The position numbers and the translations under genes were made by a program. The notes beneath the pieces are model-generated. The model was not told where the DNA came from, ran no database searches, and saw only the letters and a program-made list of their open reading frames with translations. Below, piece after piece: positions 3,709 to 52,542 of a stretch of DNA of 64,000 nucleotides. The stretch lies in assembly GCA_000004985.1 (NCBI GenBank), contig GG738861.1. One strand, given 5' to 3'. The DNA is from Naegleria gruberi (taxonomy: Eukaryota). How positions within the stretch are numbered: the stretch's first letter is position 1; every line of letters starts with the position of its first letter.

Positions 3709-3953
3709 CTTTGCATTAAATATTATAATAAATTTGAATTTATTGAATGTAAATAAATTATTGTTTCCTTTGTAAAAATTGTTAATATTTCAATCATAAC
3801 ACGTTTTTTCTCAAGAACTTTAAAATGTAATTTTTTGGAGGGAAATTTGAATTGTATTTGCGGAAATCAAAACAATTATCAAAAAATAGAACAAACTTGA
3901 AAAAGGAAGGGTTTTGTTTTTTCTCTCTCGGAATAAGAAGAATTGAATACAAT

Positions 3954-4955
3954 ATGATAGCAAGCCAGCCACCATCTGGAGAACATAAGAAAGAATGTGT
4001 TTGTGATACATGCAAGGAAATGGATGAAAAGGAAGGAGTTGTAGAGGAAGCCATTGTGGAAGAAAATAATGAAAATACAACAGCAAACACTACATCTTCC
4101 GATCCTTCTAAGGAATCAACCCTTACTGAGAAGGATATTAGCTTGGAAGAATTTGATCATTTACCTAAATCTCTTCAAAATAGACTGGGAGCTTTGAAAT
4201 TATTGAAAGAAAAGGGAAATGATTTGTATCGTCGTAATTTATTTGAGGAAGCAGTTGAGGAATATGCCAAAGTGGATCGTTTTATGGGTGTGCTCTTCAA
4301 AAAGACTGAAACTTCTCCTGAGGAGATGACCTATGTAATTCCTTTTCAAACAGCTTGTCAGCTCAACATTGCTCAATGTCTTATGAAAGTTGGAAAATAC
4401 TCAAAAGCATTAGATCACTTAGATACTGCAGAGGAATACAATAAGGAATACAAGGACAAGCCATCTGAAAAGAAAATACTTTTCAGACGTGCCAAATGTT
4501 ATCTGGACGGAATTGAAGTTGAAAAGGGCAAAGATTTAATGAAACAAGTGAAAGAAAAATATCCAGAAGATCCAGCTCTGATAAAACTTGTCGATGCTGA
4601 ATTGAAGAAGTATAAGGAGCAATTTAAGAGTGATCTTCAAAACTCTTCATTTAAGGGAATGTTCAATAAGAAGGAGCTGTATGATGATATGCCTGAACCC
4701 GTCATTAGTGTCACCCCAAGCCCAGAAACAAACTCTGAAACAATCAATGCAGAAAATGATCAAACAGACACAAACGAACCATTAACTGAACCAACTAACA
4801 ATAGACTCTCCACTAACGAAGTAAGCAATGAAACGTATGCTGCACTTGCTCAATTGATAGGAAATAATTCAACAAGTTATAATTTCCAACTCATTGTCAT
4901 ATTCCTTTTCTTGGCTATTGTTGTAGCAACAATACTCACTTATATACTTAATTAA
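3954..4955 (+). CDS. TPR-repeat protein with a C-terminal tail anchor
   Basis: The track ORF begins at a TTG (3852). The first ATG is at 3954 (MIASQPPSGEHKK...). TPR-like helices follow (LKLLKEKGNDLYRRNLFEEAVEEYAKV; AQCLMKVGKYSKALDHLDTAEEY; LFRRAKCYLDGIEVEKGKDLMKQV). A single C-terminal TM segment (LIVIFLFLAIVVATILTYILN) ends the protein. Confidence 0.6.
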   Translation: MIASQPPSGEHKKECVCDTCKEMDEKEGVVEEAIVEENNENTTANTTSSDPSKESTLTEKDISLEEFDHLPKSLQNRLGALKLLKEKGNDLYRRNLFEEAVEEYAKVDRFMGVLFKKTETSPEEMTYVIPFQTACQLNIAQCLMKVGKYSKALDHLDTAEEYNKEYKDKPSEKKILFRRAKCYLDGIEVEKGKDLMKQVKEKYPEDPALIKLVDAELKKYKEQFKSDLQNSSFKGMFNKKELYDDMPEPVISVTPSPETNSETINAENDQTDTNEPLTEPTNNRLSTNEVSNETYAALAQLIGNNSTSYNFQLIVIFLFLAIVVATILTYILN

Positions 4956-14880: not shown

Positions 14881-16426
14881 TTATTTATTGCAACTATCTT
14901 TCATTTCAATATCGTCAGTTTCATTGGCCTTTTCTACAGCATCCTTATATTCCTCTTCAGAGAGGTATGGTCGAATGAGATCGAGTTTACCAATTCTTTG
15001 CAATCCTCTTCTCAATAATTTGGCCATACGAGGGCTTCTCTTAACAAGATCAGAATAAACCAAATGGACATTGGAGCTGTCACAAAAGTTTTGAGTGACT
15101 GCAAAGGTATCATCCAAATTCAAGACCATATGCCACCAAGTACTTGGTACAAAGATTAAATCACCAGGATATTGAACACATTCCCAAGGTCTTCTTCCTT
15201 GATTAAGGGCTTCATAATATTCATTGGTCAACCATTGAATTGGTTCAGAACAAGGTACATAGCTTGGAACTGGTTGAGCATTGTCCTTAATTTCAAATTC
15301 ATCTTCATAAATCTTGTTAATTTTACCTTCGTGTAATAATTTAGTCTTGATTTGCTTTTCGAATTGCAACTTTTCTTGAATCATTTCTTGTTCTGCACTC
15401 TTCATTTCTTCAATTGCTTCCTCCAAATCTTCACTCACATGACTCATTGGATAGAAGAGCCATCTCTTACGACCACTCAATAAGGCATTCCAAGCACTTG
15501 TCAAGTATGGATCCATGTGGAACTAATTACTCTGTTTAGTATAATTTAACACAAATAATACTTACTTGAGTACCACTTCTTGCAGGTCCAACAACCAGCC
15601 ATCTAAAGAGTGGTCTTTCATCAAGTGATAGACATTGCTCGAAAAAGTCTTCCTTGAATAATTGTGGAATTTCATATTCATCCAAAAGTCTTACATCTCT
15701 TTCTGCAAACTTTGAATCAAAAACATAGATTGGATTTTCATCTTGATTATGTTTCATATAATTGGCATAATTTTGAAACTTGATTTTGATATTGCCTTCC
15801 TTTCTGTGTTCATCGTATTTACTCAAATCCTTTCCTTCCTTTTTATCTTGAAGATATTCTCTGTACAATTCTGAATAATGAGGACCCAAGTGTGAAACTT
15901 GTTGATCTGTTTTAAATTCAACTTCACCATACTTTTCCAAGAATGAATCCAATTTCCAATTAGTCATGGCTTTCCAGCTTGAAAGAGCTCCTGTAATAAT
16001 TACAGGAATTTGAAACTTGTTATACTTTTCAGTAAATTGTTCATAAGTAATACTCTCGGCAGGTATTCTTTCAATGTGTGAAAATGGAATATCAAAAAGT
16101 GACATGTCAAATTGAGATCTACTCCATCTACTGTACAAGGTACCTGAAAATCCAGTAAATGGACATGGTTTCTCAATCTTTTTACTCAACCACCATGCAT
16201 GGATATAGGTATATTTCCATGATTTTTCATACCAAAAGTTTCCTTGAAATTCATTCAATGTAAATTGTCTCCACATACTATGATCTTCACTCAATACGAG
16301 TAGAGTTTTAGAAACCAATGAAAGATTACAAAGCTCACTCTTTGATAGGTATGGAATGATAATTTCAACAATACCATCATCAGGAATTTCCTGGAGTAAA
16401 CCCAATCCTTTTCTAATTATCATCAT
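14881..16426 (-). CDS. F-box / JmjC-domain protein (JMJD6-like 2OG-Fe(II) oxygenase): join(16426..15566,15522..14881)
   Basis: The N-terminal F-box-like region is LPDDGIVEIIIPYLSKSELCNLSLVSKTLLVLSEDHSMWRQF. A 43-nt phase-0 intron (GTAAGTATT...aTACTAAAcagagtaatTAG) joins ...WLVVGPARSGTQ|FHMDPYLTSAWNALLSGRKRWLFYP. That junction matches human JMJD6 [38 protein letters not shown]. Confidence 0.8.
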
Positions 16427-17832: not shown

Positions 17833-18197
17833 TTTTTTATATTAATAATTTTCAATAATGATCTAAAAATAAAATATTTTTTCCTCTTTCCCATCACTTA
17901 TTAAATTCCTTTCCTCTTGAAGACAATTTCAAGCTTGTTTTTCATCCAACAAAGTAATATCGACAGCAATGAAATCAATTGAGATCTATGATGGTCAAAG
18001 AGGACATGGTCAGCGGATTTGTTATTCAATAAGTTTGGCTTTGATCAATTAATGAAAAATTAATAATTTATTTTTAAAATTTAAAAAAAAATTGATCGGA
18101 TCACAGTTCATAATTTTAAAACGAATTTTTTTTCTAAAATCATCATTGGATCGTAATCTTTTAATCAAAATAGTCCTAGAATAATAATAATTTGAAA

Positions 18198-19784
18198 ATG
18201 GAATATCTTGTGGATGCATTAACGAGAGCACCAACACAAGTTTTGGTAAAAAGTGCTACTCAATTCGGTGAAGATGCTGCAAGAGTTTTGGGAGCAGCCA
18301 TTGAAGAATCACTTAAAAATTGTACAGAGGAAATTACAACTAGTATTAAAGAAAATTTGAGAGTATCCGGAAAGGGAATATCAAAAGAATTAGATAAATT
18401 TTCCCAGGTTTTTAAAGAGACTGCAGTTGAAGGATTTACAGAGTGGGGTATTGGTATTGAAAGAGCATTCTATCATTTAGGTCATAAATTGGAAAATGGT
18501 TTAAATAATACAGCTAATAGATTGGCTGTTCAATTGGATACAAGTATTGAAAATAATTTATCAAAAATTGATTTGACAGTTAGAGATAGTGTCGATGTTT
18601 TTTCGAAAGGTTTTTTAAAAGAACAAGTTCCACATTGGAGAAATAGTTTTATGAGAGAATTGAATATTGTGATGATATGTTTACTACTTGTTAGTATTGG
18701 AATATTTATTTTGTGTATGAGTTGGGCTCTTGGAGGATATCAAATCATTACCCACATTTTGACAAAAGAGTTCAGTACATTGTGCTTTTTAATTTTTGCT
18801 GTTATTAATGGAATCTCCCTGTATATATGGAGCAAGTCACTGAAAGAAGGTGAAAGCTCAAACGCTTCTGTACAACAGCAATCTGAAGAAGCTGCAACTC
18901 CAAACACCAAATGGGTTAGAAATATCATAACAGAACAACACTTTTATTACAAGAAGAATCCCCAATTAATGCTGATATTTGTGGGGTGTTTGAGTTTCTT
19001 AATGGGTCATTTGGGAAGAGATGTTTTTTCATTCTCCTCGTTTTTAACTCCTTCATCTGGAATTGTTTTTCAAGCACTAACTCACTTGACTTCATGGTTC
19101 CATATTTTGATAATTCTCATACTTATGATTGCCATCACTCTGATTATTAATAAGATACTCTTATTCCAAGTAACCTTAAAGGTTTACACTTTATGGAAAG
19201 ATTGGATGAAATTCAGAGAATTGATGAGAAATGATTCTCGTATTGTTACCTCTAGTCCTATTCAAGAAGACTCGGTAAAGCAAGAAGTAGTTATTGAAAG
19301 AGTTGAATCAGTCAAGTCTCATACTAATATTGGTGTTGGAGATGAAGTTCAACAACCAACACTTCCTCCTGTACGTACATCTTTGACTAACATTCCAAGA
19401 ATTTCTCCAAAGAGCTATTCATCTGGAAACATACCTGTCAGACAACAGAGTAGTGCAGAACCACTGTCAAAGAGAGCTCATAGTGGTGATCATTTAGAAT
19501 CTTTCAATGATGATTCCAGTAGTGACAGTAGTGAGGAATCAAGCAGTAGCGATAGCAGTACTGAAGAAGAGGAACCAAAAATCACTCGTGTTGGGGACAT
19601 CCCAATCTCTGGTGCACCTTTCCTCTTGTTCTGCAAACAGAATAGACCTAAGCTCACTCAACAAAATCCAAACGCATCCTTCTTTGAAGTAAGGAAAAAG
19701 CTAGATGAAATGTGGATGAACCTGAGTGAGGATGAGAAACATGTCTATGAAGAACAAGTGGAGAAGTTAAAGGAAGAGCTGTAA
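18198..19784 (+). CDS. Multi-pass membrane protein with a C-terminal HMG box
   Basis: The track start is a TTG and the first ATG is 18198. Several TM segments are present (MICLLLVSIGIFILCMSWALGG; FSTLCFLIFAVINGISLYIW; LMLIFVGCLSFLMGHL; WFHILIILILMIAITLIINKILLF). A serine/acidic linker is followed by PKITRVGDIPISGAPFLLFCKQNRPKLTQQNPNASFFEVRKKLDEMWMNLSEDEKHVYEEQVEKLKEEL, an HMG-box-like domain. Single exon. Confidence 0.65.
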   Translation: MEYLVDALTRAPTQVLVKSATQFGEDAARVLGAAIEESLKNCTEEITTSIKENLRVSGKGISKELDKFSQVFKETAVEGFTEWGIGIERAFYHLGHKLENGLNNTANRLAVQLDTSIENNLSKIDLTVRDSVDVFSKGFLKEQVPHWRNSFMRELNIVMICLLLVSIGIFILCMSWALGGYQIITHILTKEFSTLCFLIFAVINGISLYIWSKSLKEGESSNASVQQQSEEAATPNTKWVRNIITEQHFYYKKNPQLMLIFVGCLSFLMGHLGRDVFSFSSFLTPSSGIVFQALTHLTSWFHILIILILMIAITLIINKILLFQVTLKVYTLWKDWMKFRELMRNDSRIVTSSPIQEDSVKQEVVIERVESVKSHTNIGVGDEVQQPTLPPVRTSLTNIPRISPKSYSSGNIPVRQQSSAEPLSKRAHSGDHLESFNDDSSSDSSEESSSSDSSTEEEEPKITRVGDIPISGAPFLLFCKQNRPKLTQQNPNASFFEVRKKLDEMWMNLSEDEKHVYEEQVEKLKEEL

Positions 19785-19957: not shown

Positions 19958-21321
19958 TTATTGGGATTTCAAAGTAGAAATTTCCTTTTCCAAAACTTCC
20001 ATTCTCTTCTTGAGTTGTTCCATTTCACGTTCTCTGGCAGCAATCTTGTCACCTTCCTTGAAACCACGTTGAATCATCCAGTCATCGTTCAAGAACTTTG
20101 ACAAATAGTTTCTAATAGAATCTGGCAACAAGACAACAATTCTCTTGTCAGCACTGAGATTGAGCTTCTTAGCAGCAGCAATAGCAGCATACATAGCAGT
20201 ACCAGAGGAACCACCACACAAAAGACCTTCTTCCTTAATCAATTCTCTAGCAATAGTGAATGATGGTTCATCTTCAGTCTTAATCCAAACATCAATCAAG
20301 CTTCTATCCAAAACATCAGGAACAAAGTCATAACCAATACCTTCAACTTGATAAGTTCCGACCTTATCATTTTCAGGATCAGCCAAAAGTGAACCAACTG
20401 GGTCAGCACCAACAACAATGATACCAGGAACCTTTTCCTTGAGCTTCTTTGCAATACCAGAAGCAGTACCACCAGTACCAACACCCATGACAATAACATC
20501 AATTTTACCACCAGTTTGCTTGAGAATTTCTTCAGCAGTACCTTCGTAGTGAGCCATTGGGTTGTCAATATTCTTGTATTGATCCAAAATGTGAGCAGTT
20601 TCACCAATTTCTTCCTTCATACGAGCAGCAACACCAATATGTGAATCAGGTGAGTTCCAGTCAGCTTCAGTTGGAGTTCTGATAATATCAGCACCCAAAC
20701 CCTTCAAGACAGAAACCTTTTCTTGAGACATCTTTTCTGGCAAGGTAATAATCATCTTGTATCCCTTAACAGCAGCAGTCAAAGCCAAACCAATACCAGT
20801 ATTACCAGAGGTTGGTTCAATGAGAGTGTCACCTGGTTTAATACGGCCACTCTTTTCAGCTTCCAAGAGCATACGTTTACCAATTCTATCCTTGACTGAA
20901 CCACCAGCGTTGAAATATTCACATTTAACCAAGACTTCACATTCAACTCCGTGCATCTTTGGAACACGATGCAAACGAACCATTGGGGTGTTACCAATAG
21001 CATCAAGTACGGTATCAAAAATTTGTCTACATTTACAACATCATGGGTTAGAATTTTGTGGGTAACATGCGAGATTGAATTTTGGTAGAATTTTAGTTGA
21101 ATGCATATAACAAAGCACATATATATTCATCAAAGTGGATTTTATGAATTGGATCAAAATTATTGAATTATTATTAATATAAATAATAATTGGATAATTC
21201 AATAACAAAAAACCAAAAGCAACAAACACCACACAAGATGGATTTTTAAAAATAAAAACAACATCGGTTGTTATTCTACGATAGTAATACAATACAATAC
21301 TTACTCTCTGTTGGCAGACAT
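19958..21321 (-). CDS. Cystathionine beta-synthase-like PLP enzyme with no Bateman/CBS-pair module: join(21321..21305,21026..19958)
   Basis: Exon 2 has a CBS-type catalytic core (IGNTPMVRL; [20 protein letters not shown]; [22 protein letters not shown]; [16 protein letters not shown]) and ends in a short coiled coil ([25 protein letters not shown]). No upstream ATG is in frame. A 17-nt exon 1 (ATGTCTGCCAACAGAGA|GTAAGTATT) joins through a 278-nt intron with a ttCTAACcc branch site about 20 nt before tgtAG. The result is [24 protein letters not shown], 361 aa. Confidence 0.8.
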
Positions 21322-22099
21322 ATTGTTTATGTAGTGTGCGTTGATTGCTTTCTAAAAGACTCTTTTAAGTGTGTGGGTAAAGAGAAAAAAAATGTATTTT
21401 TTTCTAAAGAATTTTAAATTGTCGCCGCGCAAGCATTAACCAAGTCCTAACTGGGTTCAACACAATATTGGAGGAGTTTTTGCAATGAACCACCAGCTAG
21501 GAGTTAAAAATCTCTATTGTAAACTTGGTTTCCAGCGTCGCTCCTTTTAAATAATCGTCGTTTTGTAAGATGTGGATTCTTTTTGGTGCATAATAAAATA
21601 ATATGGATATGAATTTACAGTTGTTTCAAATCAGATTATTTCATGTTGTTTTTCATTGTGGTTGTTGAAATTTGTGAACGTTCTGGATTTGGGTTGTTGT
21701 AAAGGATCAGCGGAGTTTATTATTTTCTCATGAATTAAAAATATCTAATATAGTTGCTTAAAATTGTGGTGTTTCAACTCTGATCTCATTCCCCTCAATA
21801 TCATTTCACATTTAATAAATATTAAAATTTAACATGACTTGAATTCATTGCTGCCAAAATTGAGCGTCCTGTTAATACTAAAAAATCACAATTTTTCAAT
21901 CCTTCATATTCCAATTTGCAGATTTTAATTTGCAGCTATTAAATTAATCTAATGCACATTGAATAATACTCTTAAAATACATCCAGGATAAAAAAGCTGA
22001 TCAATATGATGTAGATTTATGAATTTCCTCAATTCAAAATCATTATTATGGCTCCAAACCAAAAACATCATCAGCAAGTGGAAACAAACAAAATGAAAG

Positions 22100-22790
22100 T
22101 GTTGATGTGAAGAAGATTGAAAACTACTCTGAGTGGTACTCTACCAAGAGTGATTTCCTTGATTATTATGAAGTGGGGAAACCATTTGGAACAATTGCAC
22201 AAATGAACTTATGAAGAAATTCTTGCGGTTCCAGTTATTGAGGGTAGGAAGACTGAAACTGAAAAGTTTTCTGCCGCAGATTTCACAACAACCATTGAGG
22301 CTTTCATTCCAACAAACGGAAGAGCTGATCAAGCTGCCATAAGTTGGGTGTTATGATCATGGTGATGACAAGGATATGGTCTTGCCACCAAGTTGCCTTC
22401 ACTCTAGTTGTTCTTATTCCTTTTTCTGTAAGAATAAGGATAATAGTCAACGGAAATTTTCACTCTCCTAGACCAAAATGGGATTCGTATTAAGATTGAT
22501 TATCGTTTGGAAAAGACTCAAATTGGGAAATTCAAATATTGGGAACTTTATGGTATTCCATTGAGAATTGAAATTGGTCTAAAGGAAACTGGCCAAGCCA
22601 AGCTCTGTAGAAGAGACAATGGAGAAATGGACAGTCTCTCTTGATCAACCCACTGCTCAATATATCAATGGCACTTTGGATATGATTCACAATTCCATGT
22701 TGGAAAAAGCTTCACTGGGTGGTTGTAAAGTTTTCTGTACAGAATTGACTGACAGAAAACCAAACAAGAGGGCTATTTGGTAAATTGAAT
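22100..22790 (+). pseudogene. Decayed prolyl-tRNA synthetase (class II ProRS) pseudogene fragments
   Basis: Fragments in different + frames are broken by stops: IENYSEWYSTKSDFLDYYEVGKPFGTIAQ; [38 protein letters not shown] (compare eukaryotic Pro[28 protein letters not shown]); HGDDKDMVLPP (compare HGDNMGLVLPP); an anticodon-binding-like piece KFKYWELYGIPLRIEIGLKETGQAKLCRRDNGEMDS. The motif-2/3 catalytic core is missing. Confidence 0.55.
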
Positions 22791-23391
22791 AAACAAATTA
22801 GATTTAAAGTGTGTAAGTAAACAAGGGACAATTTTCTAATGCTCATAGTTTTTCATTAAGGGATTCAAGGAGATTAAGTTTCTCTAGGTTCTTCTGAATA
22901 TAAGTAGACCTTAAAAAATAGCTGAAAGCTCAACATTTTTTCTCATGAAGTCCCTTTCCTCAAATCCATTCACTATGTTGTTTAGTATTAGAGAAATTGA
23001 TAGGACTTCAATTTTAGCAATCATGCAAGCATATTGAACAAGAAAGAAGCAAGATAGTGGAGAAGAAAAACCAGGGGTAACATCATTTACTCAGGAATAA
23101 ACTTCTTCTTGATAAATTTTCATTAAGAGAGTAGAATCTATCACGATGTTGCAAAGACATAAAAGGATCGGAACCTAAGACAGTGTTTTGTAATTGCCAT
23201 TTTCTATACCAAATCAAATCTCTAAAATACTGTAACATTGGTTCTGTACAGGAAACGTCTGATGCTTTTATTGACCAAAAAAGTTCACTTTAATAATCAC
23301 AAACATCAACAACAAGATGTGTAACCAACCTAAAATAAATGAATCCAACTACCTAGCGCACAGACACTGGAAACTAAACGAAAAAAATTCA

Positions 23392-26810: not shown

Positions 26811-27293
26811 ATGGAATACCAACCTTTGAATCAACAAACCAAATACGATCCAAATCAAGTCTACCAACAACCACAACAAGTACCACCTCAAAATGTAGTC
26901 TACTCCCAGCAACCAATTTATACTCAAGAACAACAATATTATGCTTCAACACAACCTATTTATCAACAATCCCATGTTGTGACAACCACCACACAAGGAG
27001 ATGTTGATTATTTGGAAAAGCAAAAGCAAGATCAAACTTCCATGATGTTGTTTATTATTGGTTTCTTTGTTGGTATTGTGTGGATTGTTAACTTTATTCT
27101 CGTAAGTTATTATTATTTGCTTTTTAATTTAACATGTATTATTATTAAATAGCATCGTAATTCACCAAGTGAATCCGCAAGAAAGTTTGCCAAGGCTTCA
27201 ATTATTTGTTTTGCTTTGAGCTTTGTTTTTGCTGCTGTTGCTGTTGGTATTTATTTGATTGTCTTTTTCTCCATCTTCCAATCTGCTTATTAA
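26811..27293 (+). CDS. Small membrane protein with a Q/Y/P-rich N-terminus and 2 TM segments: join(26811..27101,27153..27293)
   Basis: Exon 1 is MEYQPLNQQTKYDPNQVYQQPQQVPPQNVVYSQQPIYTQEQQYY...FIIGFFVGIVWIVNFIL. A 51-nt intron (GTAAGTTATT...attaaaTAG) follows in phase 0. Exon 2 is HRNSPSESARKFAKASIICFALSFVFAAVAVGIYLIVFFSIFQSAY*. Confidence 0.65.
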
Positions 27294-27547: not shown

Positions 27548-29332
27548 ATGCCATCACAAGATAATACAGAACAAACAAGCTTTTCCTTCAGAGTGCGGGT
27601 TGCTGACAATGCCAAAGTTAAAGAAGAAAAGTTCATCGTGGTTGATTCTCAGAAATTACCAAAGAGCATTGATGAATTATTCAAATTGGGAAAAGCCAAA
27701 TTAAATTTAAAGAAGAAGGTGCTTGCACTTTATAATGGAAAATCAGGACAAGTCATTGAATCGGATAGTATTATTCAAAAGTTATTCAATGATTTTACAA
27801 CAGCTAAGAGAAAACAATTACAGGAAGAACAATTAATTGGATCAACAGGATTAGGATCAAAGCCTTCCGATGATTTATTCTTTGTTTTTTCGACCAATTT
27901 AAAACAAACTTTCCAAGGAAAGATTACGCAACCAGTTGAATCGAGTGACAATAATACAACAACATCTTCATCATCAGTTGAAAAGACACCAGAAGTAGTT
28001 GTCTTGATAAAGGACAGTTGGTTGGATGATGGAGCTATTAAACAATTGCAAGATACTGCTCGTACATTGAAATGTGTAAGAAGAGCCACTGGTCAACCTG
28101 ACCTTCATCCAGGTAAAACATTCCCAGTAGGAGCTGCCATTTCAACTGTAGATTACATCTACCCACCACTCGTTGGTAATGATATTGGGTGTGGTATGAG
28201 TTTGTATCAAACTAATTTAACATCAGATAGAGGATTGAAACAATTAGAAAAATGGGTGAAACAACTCAACGGATTAGAAAGAGGAGGAATTAGCGGCGAT
28301 GAAAGTAGACCTGTATTGGATGTTGAAAGAAAATTCTTTGGATTGGATTCTAGTGAGGATTTGCTTTCAGCCACATCTACTAACTCTGAAAATGTAGATT
28401 TTGAATTACATGAAGCCACAACTGAATTTATTGAAAAATATTTAACCTATTTTGATGTAGATTTGGGTCAACTCCAAGAAGTTACTCCAAATCTTGAATC
28501 GGAAGAGGGTGTTACCTCTCCGCCAAAGAGTGAAAATAAGGCCTTGGAATTTGCCATTCGTCAACTTGGTACTGTCGGAGGTGGAAATCACTTTGCAGAG
28601 CTTCAAATCGTCGAAAAGATTTGTAATGAAAAGATTTTTGAAGAAGAATTGAAACTTTCAAAGGATGCTTGCTTTTTGATGGTTCATAGTGGATCAAGAT
28701 CCCTTGGTGATCATATTCTTGGAGAACATGAGGATAAATTTGGAAATAGTGGCTTGCTTTTTGACTCGGATGATGCAAAGCACTATATGAAATGTCACGA
28801 CAATGCTTGTAGATGGGCAAAGGCCAACAGAGCTCTCATTGCCAGAAAGTTCCTTACTTGCATTAACGGAAATGGTAAAATGATTCTTGACATTTGCCAC
28901 AACAATGTTGTAGAAAAACAAGTTGAAAATGAAAGAGTTTTCATTCACAGAAAGGGTGCTGCACCAACAGATGCTGGTTACTTCTGCATTCCTGGTTCGA
29001 GAGGATCATTCTCCTATCTTGTTCGTGGACGTGAAGAAGATATTGAAAGCCAAATTCGTTGTAATTTTTCAGCTGCACACGGTGCTGGCAGAAAATGGAA
29101 GCGTTCCAAATCAGTTGGTATGGCCGCAAAGGAAAATGTTCAATCCTTCACAGTTACTGACCTCGGATCTCATGTCATTTGTGAAGATAAGAATTTACTT
29201 TTTGAAGAACAACCTGCTGCTTACAAGGATATCGATGCAGTCATTTCAGATTTAGTTCATTTTGGGGTTGTTGAAGTTGTTGCCATTATGAGACCACTCA
29301 TTACCTACAAGATGAGAAACTGTTGCCATTAA
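27548..29332 (+). CDS. RtcB-family RNA ligase of bacterial (E. coli RtcB) type, with a 170-aa N-terminal beta-grasp/CIDE-N-like extension
   Basis: All RtcB catalytic motifs are present (PDLHPGKTFPVGAAI; GNDIGCGMSLYQTNL; GGGNHFAELQ; VHSGSRSLGDHI; ICHNNVVE; HRKGAAPT; AAHGAGRKWKRS; AYKDIDAV). The best resemblance is to bacterial RtcB (VDIGCGMNALRTAL, GTGNHFIEIC, HSGSRGIGN, SHGAGRVMSRTKAKK, MAYKDIDAV). The eukaryotic HSPC117 type is not the closest match. The N-terminus FSFRVRVADNAKVKEEKFIVVDSQKLPKSIDELFKLGKAKLNLKKKVLALYNGKSGQVIESDSIIQKLF is CIDE-N/beta-grasp-like. Confidence 0.8.
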   Translation: MPSQDNTEQTSFSFRVRVADNAKVKEEKFIVVDSQKLPKSIDELFKLGKAKLNLKKKVLALYNGKSGQVIESDSIIQKLFNDFTTAKRKQLQEEQLIGSTGLGSKPSDDLFFVFSTNLKQTFQGKITQPVESSDNNTTTSSSSVEKTPEVVVLIKDSWLDDGAIKQLQDTARTLKCVRRATGQPDLHPGKTFPVGAAISTVDYIYPPLVGNDIGCGMSLYQTNLTSDRGLKQLEKWVKQLNGLERGGISGDESRPVLDVERKFFGLDSSEDLLSATSTNSENVDFELHEATTEFIEKYLTYFDVDLGQLQEVTPNLESEEGVTSPPKSENKALEFAIRQLGTVGGGNHFAELQIVEKICNEKIFEEELKLSKDACFLMVHSGSRSLGDHILGEHEDKFGNSGLLFDSDDAKHYMKCHDNACRWAKANRALIARKFLTCINGNGKMILDICHNNVVEKQVENERVFIHRKGAAPTDAGYFCIPGSRGSFSYLVRGREEDIESQIRCNFSAAHGAGRKWKRSKSVGMAAKENVQSFTVTDLGSHVICEDKNLLFEEQPAAYKDIDAVISDLVHFGVVEVVAIMRPLITYKMRNCCH

Positions 29333-42675: not shown

Positions 42676-42860
42676 ACTATTATAATTAAACTAATCAATG
42701 AATTCATTATTTACTTCTATTGCTCATAAAAAAGTGACTTTTTACCTTTGGATAGAGACTTATATTCAACATTGTGGATGGAGAAAAGAATGATTATCAA
42801 GGTATTGTCTAATGCTGTATATGAAAACAAATATATGAATAATAATTCATAATTATGTAT

Positions 42861-42932
42861 TCCCGTGTAGTCCAATGGCTAGGATACCTGGCTTTCACCC
42901 AGGAGGTCCGGGTTCAATTCCCGGCATGGGAG
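42861..42932 (+). tRNA. tRNA-Glu (anticodon UUC)
   Basis: TCCCGTGTAGTCCAATGGCTAGGATACCTGGCTTTCACCCAGGAGGTCCGGGTTCAATTCCCGGCATGGGAG folds as a cloverleaf. The acceptor stem is TCCCGTG/CATGGGA with one G-T pair. The anticodon stem is CCTGG/CCAGG around the loop cTTTCAc. The T-arm is GGTTCAATTCC. There is no intron. Confidence 0.9.
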
Positions 42933-42937
42933 AATAC

Positions 42938-48426: not shown

Positions 48427-49318
48427 CTACTTACGGTCACCGCCTCTTCTTCTAGAATCATAAGGAGGGGATCTTCTTGGAGAGTAACCACCTCTTGGAC
48501 CACTTGGTGATCTATCACCTCTGTCTCCTCTATCACTTCTATCACCTCTGTCACTTCTGTCACCTCTATCTCCTCTGAATGGTGGTGATCTTCTGGAATA
48601 TGGGTGATATCTTTGGTCTCTTCTACTATAACGATCATCGTCATATCTACGAGAACCACCTCCTCTACCTCCACCAAATCTACCTCCTCTACTTCCACGA
48701 GTAGATGGAGCAATACCTAATTGACTCTTCTTGTCTCTACCGACATCATAGTCAACATCCCATTTGTTTTGACCAGAAATTTCACCAGACTTGACAGCAT
48801 TGAAGGCCTTTTCGGTGTCTTCTCTGTTGGCAAATGAAATGAAGGCATATCTCAAAAAGTGACCTTGTTTAGTGAAACCAAGCTTAACACTAGCAATTTC
48901 ACCACACTTAGAGAAAGCATCACGCAAATCATTTTCAGTTGTGTTACTATCCAAGCTACCAAGGAAAATTGAAGTGGCCTTTGACTTTTCTTCTTGGAGA
49001 CTAAACTATGTGTTAAAAATCAATAAAATACTACAATAATACATACGCAACATTGTTTTCACTACTACTAGGTCTTCTATCGTATCTTCTTTCATCGTAA
49101 GATCTTCTATCATCACGACGGTCATCATATCTTCTTTCATTGTATCTTCTATCGTCATTGTATCTTCTGTCATCACGACGGTCATCATTGTATCTTCTAT
49201 CGTCATGTCTATCATCATTATATCTTCTATCATCGTTGTATCTCTTTGGAGAAGAACGAGGAGAGTGATTATTATTATTATTATGAGGTTCATCACGTTG
49301 AGGGGAATTATTTCCCAT
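48427..49318 (-). CDS. RRM RNA-binding protein with RY/RD-repeat N-terminus and RGG/RD-repeat C-terminus: join(49318..49043,49005..48427)
   Basis: Exon 1 is MGNNSPQRDEPHNNNNNHSPRSSPKRYNDDRRYNDDRHDDRRYNDDRRDD...SSENNVAY. Exon 2's track M (48954) is a TTG, and RNP2 (IFLGSL) lies upstream of it with a stop just beyond. That forces splicing through a 37-nt intron (gtattattgtag...cacatag, phase 0; weak GTATTA donor). Exon 2 is FSLQEEKSKATSIFLGSLDSNTTENDLRDAFSKCGEIASVKLGF...RYAFISFANRE (RNP1)...GRFGGGRGGGSRRYDD...GDRGDRSDRGDRSDRGDRGDR. Confidence 0.7.
48530..49262 (-). repeat. Imperfect in-frame tandem repeats within the RRM gene (9-nt GDRSDR units near 48530-48600; 24-nt RRYNDDRx units near 49085-49262)
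   Basis: ctctatcacttctatcacctctgtcacttctgtcacctctatctcctct and repeated cgtcat(t)gtatcttctatc units are visible directly. They encode RD/RY dipeptide-rich low complexity and are not CRISPR-like (no unique spacers, and they are coding). Confidence 0.6.
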
Positions 49319-50593: not shown

Positions 50594-52542
50594 ATGAGTG
50601 CTAAAGCTTCTCCTCTTACTACAAACACCAAACGAAAGTTTGACGAGCTTTATTATGATGATCACAAAAATACAGCCAACGGAGGTACACCTAAAAAGAC
50701 ATCATCAAAAGCCAAGAACAATAATAATAACAACAATATAGAAAGAACTTCTCCTCCAGATAAGAGAGTAAAGAAGTTTACTTCATCAGCCTCTCCTAAA
50801 GTTGTAGGTAAGTAATACAAACCAACCGACGTTTCCAAATATGTATAATTGGCCAACATTTTACAACGCCTTTCATTTTGCCATCAGTATTATCATCTGA
50901 TTCCTCTTCCTCCAACACATTGCCACTTTCTAAGAAAGTAAATAGACGACAATCCACTGCAGTTGATAATGAAAATAGCTACTCTCCATCAGGTTCTTCA
51001 TCCTCTTCAAGTTCAAGGGAGAATAGTTGCGATACTAAGGAAACAATAATATTTATCAAGAAGGATCTGCATTCAAAAGGAAATGAATTGAGTGATTCCA
51101 TTGATAGTGATGAAATGCCATGTATTTCACATAAAACAGTCTCCCTCAAACGACCACTATCACAACAACAAGGATTTGCAACTCCAAACAAGATCAGTAG
51201 TAATCCTCAACCACACATAAGCACAACCTCCACTCAATCCCATTCGACCTCCACTCCTCCAATTCCTTCTAGTTCACAAACCCATAGTAATAATAGTAAT
51301 GGTAATACCACTCCAAAGACTCCAAAAACTTCATTTGCAACACCTTCCAGCCAATCCTCTAATGTATCTCAAAAAAAGATTTCACCTTCTCCATTTTCTC
51401 AACATTTCCCTAATTTAACAAGACCTTATTTATCATCACCTCGTGATACCAAATCTCCATTATCCACTCCAATTAAAACATCCAGCCAAGTTTCAATGGT
51501 GTCTGATAATGCACCTTCTCCTACCTCTGTAAAAACTGGTCCAAACCATCAAGCAACCCTTCCAATCCTCTCCCAAAAACCTAAGAAATTTCCAGTATCC
51601 TACTCTCAAAAGATTGGACAATGCATATGGACTCCTCTTGAATCCAATTCAGAAAATGAAGGAATGCTCGAAGAGTTTGAGTTATTCTGCATTAAAACCA
51701 TCAGAGATCAAGACAGTTTTATACCAGATAAGGCCCTTGAAATTCTACATACCTTCGACAATGACATCAAACAAGCTAAATTATATGTGAAGGAACATCC
51801 AAAACAAATCACAAGAAGGAGGATTTTAACTGACGAACAAGAAGCAAAACTCTACAAGGCCTTCAATGAATTCCATCTCTACAAGGGTTCTCTTAGGAAT
51901 TTATACAAGGCAGTTTTGCCAGAGGTACCTTATTTTGATTTGGTTAATTATTTTTTCATTTACAAAAAGGAAGAATCTAAGGTTCCACCAAAACTCAGCA
52001 AAATTGTTCGTAATGGTCTTTTAAGAGCTGCTCAAATGCGCAATATCATTTCAAATCAAGCATCATCCTATCAAAACAATGACTCTGATAGTAGTGGTGA
52101 CAGTAGTTCTGATGATGAGAATTGTTCTGATAGTGCAACAGAGGGAACTCCATCAAGACAAGGTAATAATAATATAAAGAAGGAATCTAATCAAAATGAA
52201 GAAGATGATTCTGGTGATGAATCCTCTGATTCAGAGGAGGAAGAAGAAAAACTCAAGTCTACCCCAATCAAATCACACTCAAATAGTAATCATATCAAAT
52301 CTCAAACACCTCATTCGACCTTTTGTTTGAGTGATAGTGAGGAAGATGTTAGTTTCAAAGATCATGAGTTTGTCAATGATCTTGCACAATACAGCAATCA
52401 TGATGCTTCTTCTCAGGAGGACAGAGCTTACATACCTATTGAGAATGAAGACTCAACCTCAACAACAGAAGTGTTCAATTTTGAAAACAACGAAATGTAT
52501 GAGTTACATCCTCCAACTCAACTCTTCTTTGATCTAAATTAA
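50594..52542 (+). CDS. S/T/P-rich nuclear protein with a C-terminal SANT/ELM2-like region: join(50594..50807,50888..52542)
   Basis: The track start 50591 is a GTG and the ATG is at 50594 (MSAKASPLTTNTKRKFDELYYDD...KAKNNNNNNNIERTSPPDKRVKKFTSSASPKVV). A perfect AG|GTAAGT donor and an 80-nt intron ending ccatcAG join it in phase 1 to the 554-aa downstream ORF, whose own M is a TTG. SANT-like residues are ILTDEQEAKLYKAFNEFHLYKGSLRNLYKAVLPEV. Confidence 0.65.

Follow-up and report, generated by a model that had tools for sequence, protein, structure and literature searches.

Does the gene at positions 19958 to 21321 of a 64,000-nt stretch of Naegleria gruberi DNA (contig GG738861.1, assembly GCA_000004985.1; hereafter the window) encode a genuine cystathionine beta-synthase (CBS), and is its start codon carried by an exon of only 17 nt? 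An earlier note, made from the sequence alone, had proposed a CBS-type enzyme with neither an N-terminal heme-binding extension nor the C-terminal Bateman module, and had placed its start in a micro-exon. We put at about 85% the probability that the locus is the single-intron CBS gene of N. gruberi, and that its product is a minimal, constitutive enzyme consisting of CBS core, linker, and C-terminal helix. The spliced product matches XP_002678669.1 (EFC45925.1; UniProt D2VBK6) at all 361 of its 361 residues, the five contributed by the micro-exon among them. That entry, titled cystathionine beta synthase and assigned to N. gruberi NEG-M, is an automatic annotation without experimental characterization. 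The gene is an ordinary one: it and its exact model, micro-exon included, are already public in RefSeq and have been annotated since release of the N. gruberi genome, and nothing is newly discovered beyond the tail.

Catalytic core and family assignment

The only Pfam domain of the 361-aa protein is PF00291 (PALP), the fold-type II pyridoxal 5'-phosphate (PLP) catalytic domain (Table 1). When the curated NCBIfam cut-offs were applied to whole-protein scores, the protein passed the CBS equivalog, TIGR01137 (532.6 bits; cut-off, 510.25), which it matched at profile positions 2-351 of 457; the last ∼100 positions, corresponding to the Bateman module, were unmatched. It failed all four cysteine synthase models: cysKM (TIGR01136; 315.8 bits; cut-off, 344.15), cysK (TIGR01139; 312.4 bits; cut-off, 350.95), cysM (TIGR01138; 242.8 bits; cut-off, 394.2), and PRK10717 (NF007989; 320.1 bits; cut-off, 387). 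The top matches among solved structures in PDB are the CBS enzymes of human, Toxoplasma, honeybee, Legionella, Coxiella, fly, and yeast (E values of 1e-132 to 1e-113), whereas PDB cysteine synthases match at 1e-68 or weaker, ∼210 bits below CBS. Identity to the catalytic core of human CBS (the 45-kDa core, residues 1-413; 1jbq, 1m54, and 5mms) is 195 of 326 residues (59.8%), with PLP and substrate motifs and linker conserved; the earlier estimate of about 60% identity to metazoan CBS across the PLP domain, and the family call itself, hold.

The PLP (Schiff-base) lysine is K51, in the motif SVKDR (codon at 20893-20891), and corresponds to human K119. The Asn loop, TSGNT (residues 78-82), corresponds to human T146-T150, the phosphate loop, GTGGT (189-193), to human G256-T260, and S269, at the position of the Ser that contacts PLP N1, to human S349; the catalytic site also holds Q155/Y156. 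All catalytic motif positions are invariant in an alignment of 46 homologs. At the second-substrate loop, OAS-TL enzymes (O-acetylserine [thiol] lyases) have GIGAGF and CBS enzymes GIGYDF; the Naegleria loop, EGIGYDF (residues 234-240), has the CBS form and matches human CBS. This loop has been proposed to hold the second substrate (PMC7474069). The motif PDSxRNYxxKFLxDxWM (residues 307-323) of the linker that follows also matches human CBS and is present in all CBS homologs. OAS-TL enzymes (CysK-CysM) have the fold-II PLP domain, a similar size, and the TSGNT and GTGGT loops in common with the Naegleria protein, but they lack the CBS linker, and the Naegleria protein falls below all of their family cut-offs. 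An AlphaFold2 model (mean pLDDT, 90.3; pTM, 0.87) superposes on Legionella pneumophila CBS, which is 61% identical, with a root-mean-square deviation (rmsd) of 1.4 Å, and on human CBS with an rmsd of 1.6-1.9 Å; Foldseek comparison with CBS structures gave TM scores of 0.86-0.88. All of this marks the protein as a member of the CBS lineage, with features of CBS and not of OAS-TL type.

Such resemblance could nevertheless belong to an enzyme that is a CBS in looks alone and that physiologically acts as a cysteine synthase (O-acetylserine sulfhydrylase) or a serine sulfhydrase for de novo cysteine synthesis. Nozaki, in 2001, reportedly described both cysteine synthase and serine sulfhydrase activity for Trypanosoma cruzi CBS in vitro, and the Naegleria protein is of OAS-TL size and carries no regulatory module. 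O-Acetylserine is also accepted by Toxoplasma gondii CBS (PMC7474069). We consider this alternative unlikely, because the CBS equivalog was passed while four cysteine synthase models stayed under their cut-offs, the cysteine synthases in PDB score so far below CBS, and both the CBS-form loop and the CBS-specific linker are retained; moreover, the cysteine synthase activity of Caenorhabditis elegans CBS-1 is ∼300-fold lower than its CBS activity (PMC3316156).

Gene structure and the 17-nt first exon

Exon 1 codes for M-S-A-N-R plus the two leading bases of codon 6, and its ATG lies 295 nt upstream of exon 2; splicing yields a coding sequence of 1086 nt. The intervening sequence has the attributes of a U2-type intron: GT...AG ends, a branch-like YTRAY motif near the 3' end (TTCTAAC at 21053-21047, with CTAAC beginning 25 nt ahead of the 3' end), a length not divisible by 3, in-frame stops, and a conserved position. 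Its GC content is 25.5%, versus 40% for exon 2. Each coordinate and motif that the earlier note had given for this arrangement was found in the sequence.

Naegleria lovaniensis (L001, 6001-6017) and Naegleria fowleri (L002, 3001-3017) likewise have a 17-nt first exon, ATGTCCGCTTC[T/A]AAAGA, followed by a GTA[A/T]GT donor (GTATGT or GTAAGT) and an intron at the identical phase-2 position, of 325 nt in N. lovaniensis and 413 nt in N. fowleri. The three introns cannot be aligned with one another, and none of their lengths is divisible by 3. The corresponding position is intron-less in Willaertia and Acrasis, so the intron is Naegleria-specific, either gained there or lost in the other two genera.

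A different gene model would dispense with the micro-exon altogether: transcription would begin within the "intron" and translation at M21 (ATG at 20983), the first in-frame ATG of exon 2, giving a 341-aa open reading frame (ORF). That ORF is what naive, prokaryote-style ORF calling produces (for example, P0001, from a metagenome contig), and an unspliced start is conceivable in N. fowleri and N. lovaniensis, which have an in-frame ATG 11 nt ahead of the acceptor; P0123 begins MFNSQIFD. Yet the 14 codons that precede M21 (codons 7-20) align with a conserved start common to every CBS and differ from N. lovaniensis by 10 synonymous and no nonsynonymous changes. In N. gruberi a TGA closes the exon-2 frame five codons upstream of the acceptor, and no ATG follows it; an unspliced message therefore cannot encode the conserved N terminus, and splicing alone can supply the start codon. 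Together with the exon, GTAAGT donor, and phase kept in three species, and with the joined exon sequence described next, these observations make a start at M21 very improbable.

Two intron-less contigs (L006 and L007) carry ATGTCTGCCAACAAAGA joined directly to TCAAATTTTCGAT, with exon 1 contiguous with exon 2. They were assembled from runs ERR2815185 and ERR2815209, come from a Naegleria with a 90% identical protein, and each end 10 nt past the stop codon. Because all the genomic Naegleria-type contigs that we met (L001, L002, L005, and those behind P0123-P0126) either contain the intron or read through its 3' end, L006 and L007 are most simply interpreted as assembled transcripts. The earlier note had called for confirmation of the exon 1-exon 2 junction, and the comparative evidence supplies support for it: exon, donor, and phase are conserved in three species, joined exons occur in two contigs, and codons 7-20 show synonymous changes only.

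The near-acceptor ATGs of the sister species lie at L001 6330-6345 (ATGAACAATAG/TCAA) in N. lovaniensis and at L002 3417-3433 (ATGTTCAATAG/TCAA) in N. fowleri; N. gruberi has the TGA at this site. Owing to these ATGs, an unspliced message in either species could encode a near-full-length enzyme (M-N/F-N-S-QIFD...). Their presence may be a coincidence, or they may serve as a fallback start upon intron retention.

The 83-aa ORF that had been noticed inside the intron does exist, but as a frame artifact. We rejected it as a gene: it is the exon-2 frame extended backwards into the AT-rich intron, where it is TGA closed, and it has no counterpart in the N. lovaniensis and N. fowleri introns. A hidden element in the long intron was likewise rejected, since Rfam gave no match inside 21304-21027 and the three Naegleria introns are unalignable.

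Absence of heme-binding and Bateman domains

N-terminal to the position aligned with human residue 73 there are just four residues, which leaves the heme ligands Cys52 and His65 without a counterpart; residues 1-24 include neither Cys nor His. The human CXXC motif, CPGC, aligns to VPGI, and CXXC is therefore absent as well. Pfam found no PF00571 in the protein, which ends 31 residues past the linker. The architecture is that of a minimal, trypanosomatid-type CBS, i.e., a eukaryotic core with neither heme domain nor Bateman module, and is neither the canonical eukaryotic form of yeast, Toxoplasma, and metazoans, with two C-terminal PF00571 domains, nor the metazoan heme-CBS. Both absences had been claimed in the earlier note, and both stand.

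Could the lack of a Bateman module be an artifact, arising because an exon farther downstream was missed, the assembly is wrong, or the gene is a decaying pseudogene? Most of the eukaryotic and myxobacterial CBS proteins that we retrieved carry PF00571, and erroneous gene models are found in this group, that of Willaertia being an example. We searched the 64-kb window with the Bateman modules of 80-odd homologs, used both as tblastn queries and as a hidden Markov model (HMM), and found no Bateman coding sequence (best E values, 0.03 and 0.4, respectively); a module elsewhere in the window was accordingly rejected. Nor is there room for one downstream, because the convergent HMG-box gene terminates 173 nt downstream of the CBS stop codon. 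In five heterolobosean genomes and ∼20 environmental sequences, the protein likewise stops after a conserved coiled coil; N. lovaniensis, N. fowleri, Acrasis kona, and, after correction, Willaertia magna share this core-plus-coil architecture. Decay is contradicted by strong purifying selection, with 109 synonymous versus 34 nonsynonymous codon differences, and by a codon bias that tops the window. We regard an artifact as highly improbable.

The W. magna CBS model (337 aa; P0005, ABK040_001068, JBEGDK010000136.1) contains a spurious 82-nt "intron" at L003 ∼3880-3980, where the conserved segment is encoded by the DNA in a different frame, an arrangement indicative of a one-base indel, or of a faulty assembly, across which the annotation was drawn. 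The corrected protein is ∼363 aa long and ends in the same coiled-coil tail.

A predicted coiled-coil tail in place of the Bateman module

About 30 residues follow the linker, at the place where other CBS proteins have the Bateman module. AlphaFold2 predicts a single helix for residues 333-360 (model residues 327-354; pLDDT, 88-94) whose four heptads have I/M/M/I at the a positions and R/L/L/L at the d positions, in keeping with the short coiled coil proposed for this end of the protein. Among the best 120 matches, 29 relatives genuinely lack a Bateman module, and 22-23 of these have comparable tails, different in sequence but like in character, including Willaertia, Acrasis, and environmental sequences; the remaining six end in ...WDNASL or ...DAPSDEQQQ.

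The model weakly suggests that the tail helix serves oligomerization, for example by assembling catalytic dimers into tetramers, in the Bateman module's stead. One could go further and suppose that the four-heptad helix is not a leftover but a dedicated zipper that took the place of the Bateman module on a single occasion, in the ancestry of Heterolobosea and of a broader range of environmental eukaryotes, and that is possibly shared with kinetoplastids, which would explain the T. cruzi tetramer; we regard this extension as tentative, and somewhat more likely wrong than right. The CBS architectures described in the literature that we searched are heme plus core plus Bateman, core plus Bateman, core only, and tandem cores. 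A core-plus-coiled-coil form is not among them, making the tail a small, mildly new element.

Comparison with other CBS enzymes

The trypanosomatid enzymes (T. cruzi, Leishmania major, and Trypanosoma rangeli; ∼360-385 aa) resemble the Naegleria protein in having neither heme domain nor Bateman module. Both Naegleria and the trypanosomatids belong to Discoba. Nozaki's 2001 work reportedly described the T. cruzi CBS genes as tandem, multicopy, and intron-less; the Naegleria gene, in contrast, has a conserved 5' intron. Published work agrees with the trypanosomatid parallel drawn in the earlier note, since the CBS enzymes there are heme-less and Bateman-less (PMC3316156, PMC7474069); they are AdoMet (S-adenosylmethionine) insensitive, with a shortened C terminus that is compatible with tetramers (PMC3316156, PMC7474069, PMC4005819). 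The T. cruzi enzyme is described in PMC3316156, which cites Nozaki (2001), as without heme and Bateman domains, as not activated by AdoMet, and as still tetrameric. Heme-less, Bateman-less CBS is known from trypanosomatids, some bacteria, and nematodes, the last in a tandem form (PMC3316156, PMC7474069).

Human CBS differs from the Naegleria protein in having a heme domain, CXXC motif, and Bateman module, and the Naegleria protein has the coiled-coil tail in addition. AdoMet regulates mammalian CBS via the Bateman module, and truncated human CBS is a constitutively active dimer (PMC3316156). The yeast and T. gondii enzymes (6c2h and 6xwl) are the top Foldseek matches, are 56-58% identical, and are heme independent like that of Naegleria, but they keep the Bateman module where Naegleria has a helix of ∼30 residues. 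Catalytic cores alone are found in L. pneumophila (6vju; 317-324 aa; 61% identity), Coxiella burnetii (4ofx), and Neomarinimicrobiota metagenome-assembled genomes (MAGs; 317 aa); unlike the Naegleria protein, these short bacterial enzymes have no coiled-coil tail and are encoded by intron-less genes.

Relatives and origin

After the RefSeq entry, the closest proteins come without exception from Heterolobosea: N. lovaniensis and N. fowleri (90% identity), W. magna (72%), and A. kona (68%). A neighbor-joining tree places 29 Bateman-less proteins on one side and 82 Bateman-bearing proteins on the other; the grouping of Naegleria with Willaertia has a bootstrap of 50/50. An exhaustive search of representative sequences returned no identifiable kinetoplastid CBS and no coil-tailed representative.

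Among the bacterial genome contigs (L008-L087), many Myxococcota MAGs (Kofleriaceae, Polyangiales, and Haliangiales) encode CBS proteins of ∼460 aa that are 62-66% identical and have full Bateman modules; they are as close to Naegleria CBS as most eukaryotic CBS proteins are. Core-only bacterial CBS proteins of 317-318 aa, ending shortly past the linker, are encoded at four loci (L045, L054, L056, and L084), two of them labeled "Candidatus Neomarinimicrobiota" and two uncultured bacterium. We found no pointer to horizontal transfer from bacteria, the Myxococcota proteins being Bateman bearing and the short bacterial forms coil-less.

A RecQ-type helicase gene lies downstream of CBS in N. lovaniensis and N. 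fowleri. The genes flanking N. lovaniensis CBS (6 kb on each side) have no match in the 64-kb window; the surroundings of CBS therefore differ in gene order within the genus, and the neighborhood offers no functional hint.

Upstream palindrome and expression

The only conserved noncoding block around CBS in four Naegleria taxa is a palindrome of the form AGAAAAAAA-(4-7 nt loop)-TTTTTTTCT, located 60-85 nt ahead of the ATG. The 64 kb contain a single copy (0.01 expected), and L001 (5915-5936), L002 (2928-2949), L006 (78-98), and L007 (58-78) contain one each, with no other copy in 87 loci; the upstream regions of the Willaertia and Acrasis CBS genes lack it. A hairpin is predicted, if the palindrome is transcribed, in three of three sequences folded. 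Because its stem is invariant, a DNA-level role and an RNA-level role are indistinguishable; because the probable transcripts L006 and L007 include it, it may be a hairpin in the 5' untranslated region (UTR) and not a promoter site. We list it as a candidate, either for a cis element specific to this gene or for a 5'-UTR hairpin.

Among the window's 30 long ORFs, exon 2 shows the lowest effective codon number (30.6), i.e., the strongest codon bias, which suggests that the CBS gene is highly expressed.

Neighboring genes and other introns in the window

The earlier note had called the CBS intron the only long one in the window. A heuristic scan, which is blind to micro-exons and nonconsensus sites, detected two persuasive introns, of 43 and 46 nt, and nothing else that was both long and credible; the CBS intron is about six times their length. 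Both short introns join long coding-like ORFs (Table 1). The scan also gave a 1106-nt candidate at 50808-51913. A 551-nt candidate leading into the RtcB gene was rejected as a false join with a small PQ-rich ORF. This small ORF, which adjoins the RtcB gene, has a Pro/Gln-rich N terminus, a single hydrophobic segment, and a consensus GTAAGT donor at 27102; it probably runs on into a small exon that escaped detection.

The protein encoded by the convergent neighbor of CBS contains hydrophobic segments and an acidic stretch rich in Ser and Glu, and it has an HMG box at its C-terminal end. On the other side, the 1.9 kb upstream of CBS contain no ORF of at least 64 aa in an otherwise gene-dense window. 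GC content there is coding-like (0.37-0.42) at 22100-22800, and the sole RNA-family match is a weak one to snoZ185 (22049-22138; 20 bits; E = 0.56); the region could hold a multi-intron gene, a pseudogene, or a noncoding RNA. No RNA gene in the window other than one for tRNA-Glu reaches the Rfam gathering score.

Table 1. Features of the CBS locus and of the surrounding window (positions are those of the window)
Feature	Positions	Strand	Remarks
CBS exon 1	21321-21305	−	17-nt micro-exon, ATGTCTGCCAACAGAGA
CBS start codon (ATG)	21321-21319	−	
CBS intron	21304-21027	−	spliceosomal, phase 2, 278 nt; 5' GTAAGT, 3' TGTAG
CBS exon 2	21026-19958	−	third base of codon 6 to Q361, then TAA (19960-19958)
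ORF within intron	21041-21292	−	83 aa, TTG start; spurious
Fold-type II PLP catalytic domain	20120-21007	−	PF00291, residues 13-308, E = 9e-70
CBS-type linker	20048-20119	−	∼residues 309-332; homologous to human CBS ∼375-400
C-terminal amphipathic helix	19964-20047	−	four heptads, residues 333-360; predicted coiled coil
Conserved palindrome	21383-21405	−	upstream of ATG
Short intron	15523-15565	−	43 nt; GTAAGT/GTATGT...TAG
Short intron	49001-49046	−	46 nt; GTAAGT/GTATGT...TAG
Convergent HMG-box gene	18192-19784	+	530 aa; PF00505, E = 9e-14
Region upstream of CBS	21450-23316		
Small ORF	26811-27152	+	
RtcB tRNA-splicing ligase gene	27548-29332	+	PF01139, E = 4.5e-78
tRNA-Glu gene	42860-42933	+	anticodon TTC

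Proposed function and significance

For a minimal CBS of this kind, serine (or perhaps O-acetylserine or cysteine) would be converted to a PLP aminoacrylate on K51, which homocysteine would attack to form cystathionine. Cystathionine gamma-lyase would then release cysteine, completing reverse transsulfuration, and side reactions would form H2S. Cystathionine gamma-lyase has been detected as a protein in Willaertia proteomics (PMC7696429). By analogy with T. cruzi CBS and the truncated human enzyme, and because the Bateman module is absent, the Naegleria protein is most likely a constitutive, AdoMet-insensitive CBS like that of trypanosomatids. Less firmly, its zipper-like C-terminal helix might pair dimers into tetramers, and the long 5'-proximal intron might, with the upstream palindrome, be part of expression control.

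Several points weigh against this interpretation. Homology does not fix the physiological substrate, since the T. cruzi and T. gondii enzymes use O-acetylserine or reportedly show cysteine synthase activity in vitro; for the Naegleria enzyme, too, activity with O-acetylserine or sulfide is possible. A literature search found no enzymatic, expression, or oligomerization data on any heterolobosean CBS; the role suggested for the coiled coil comes from a model of the monomer only, and the RNA-level support that L006 and L007 lend to the junction is indirect. A single grouping of all Bateman-less relatives is weakly supported, with a bootstrap of 14/50 for the exact split, and we do not claim that they form a monophyletic clan.

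The analysis confirms that a gene model with a first exon of only 17 nt, difficult as it looks, is correct, and it shows that a heme-less, Bateman-less CBS is the rule across Heterolobosea and not a feature of trypanosomatids alone. N. fowleri, a lethal pathogen, has a near-identical enzyme (P0122). The N. gruberi enzyme is about 60% identical to the human core, and the regulatory domains of human CBS are missing from the proteins of both Naegleria species, a difference that may interest those working on sulfur amino acid metabolism as a drug target. If the tail does act as a zipper, core plus coiled coil would stand as a class of its own among CBS architectures; the conserved tail offers a testable idea of how minimal CBS enzymes stay tetrameric.

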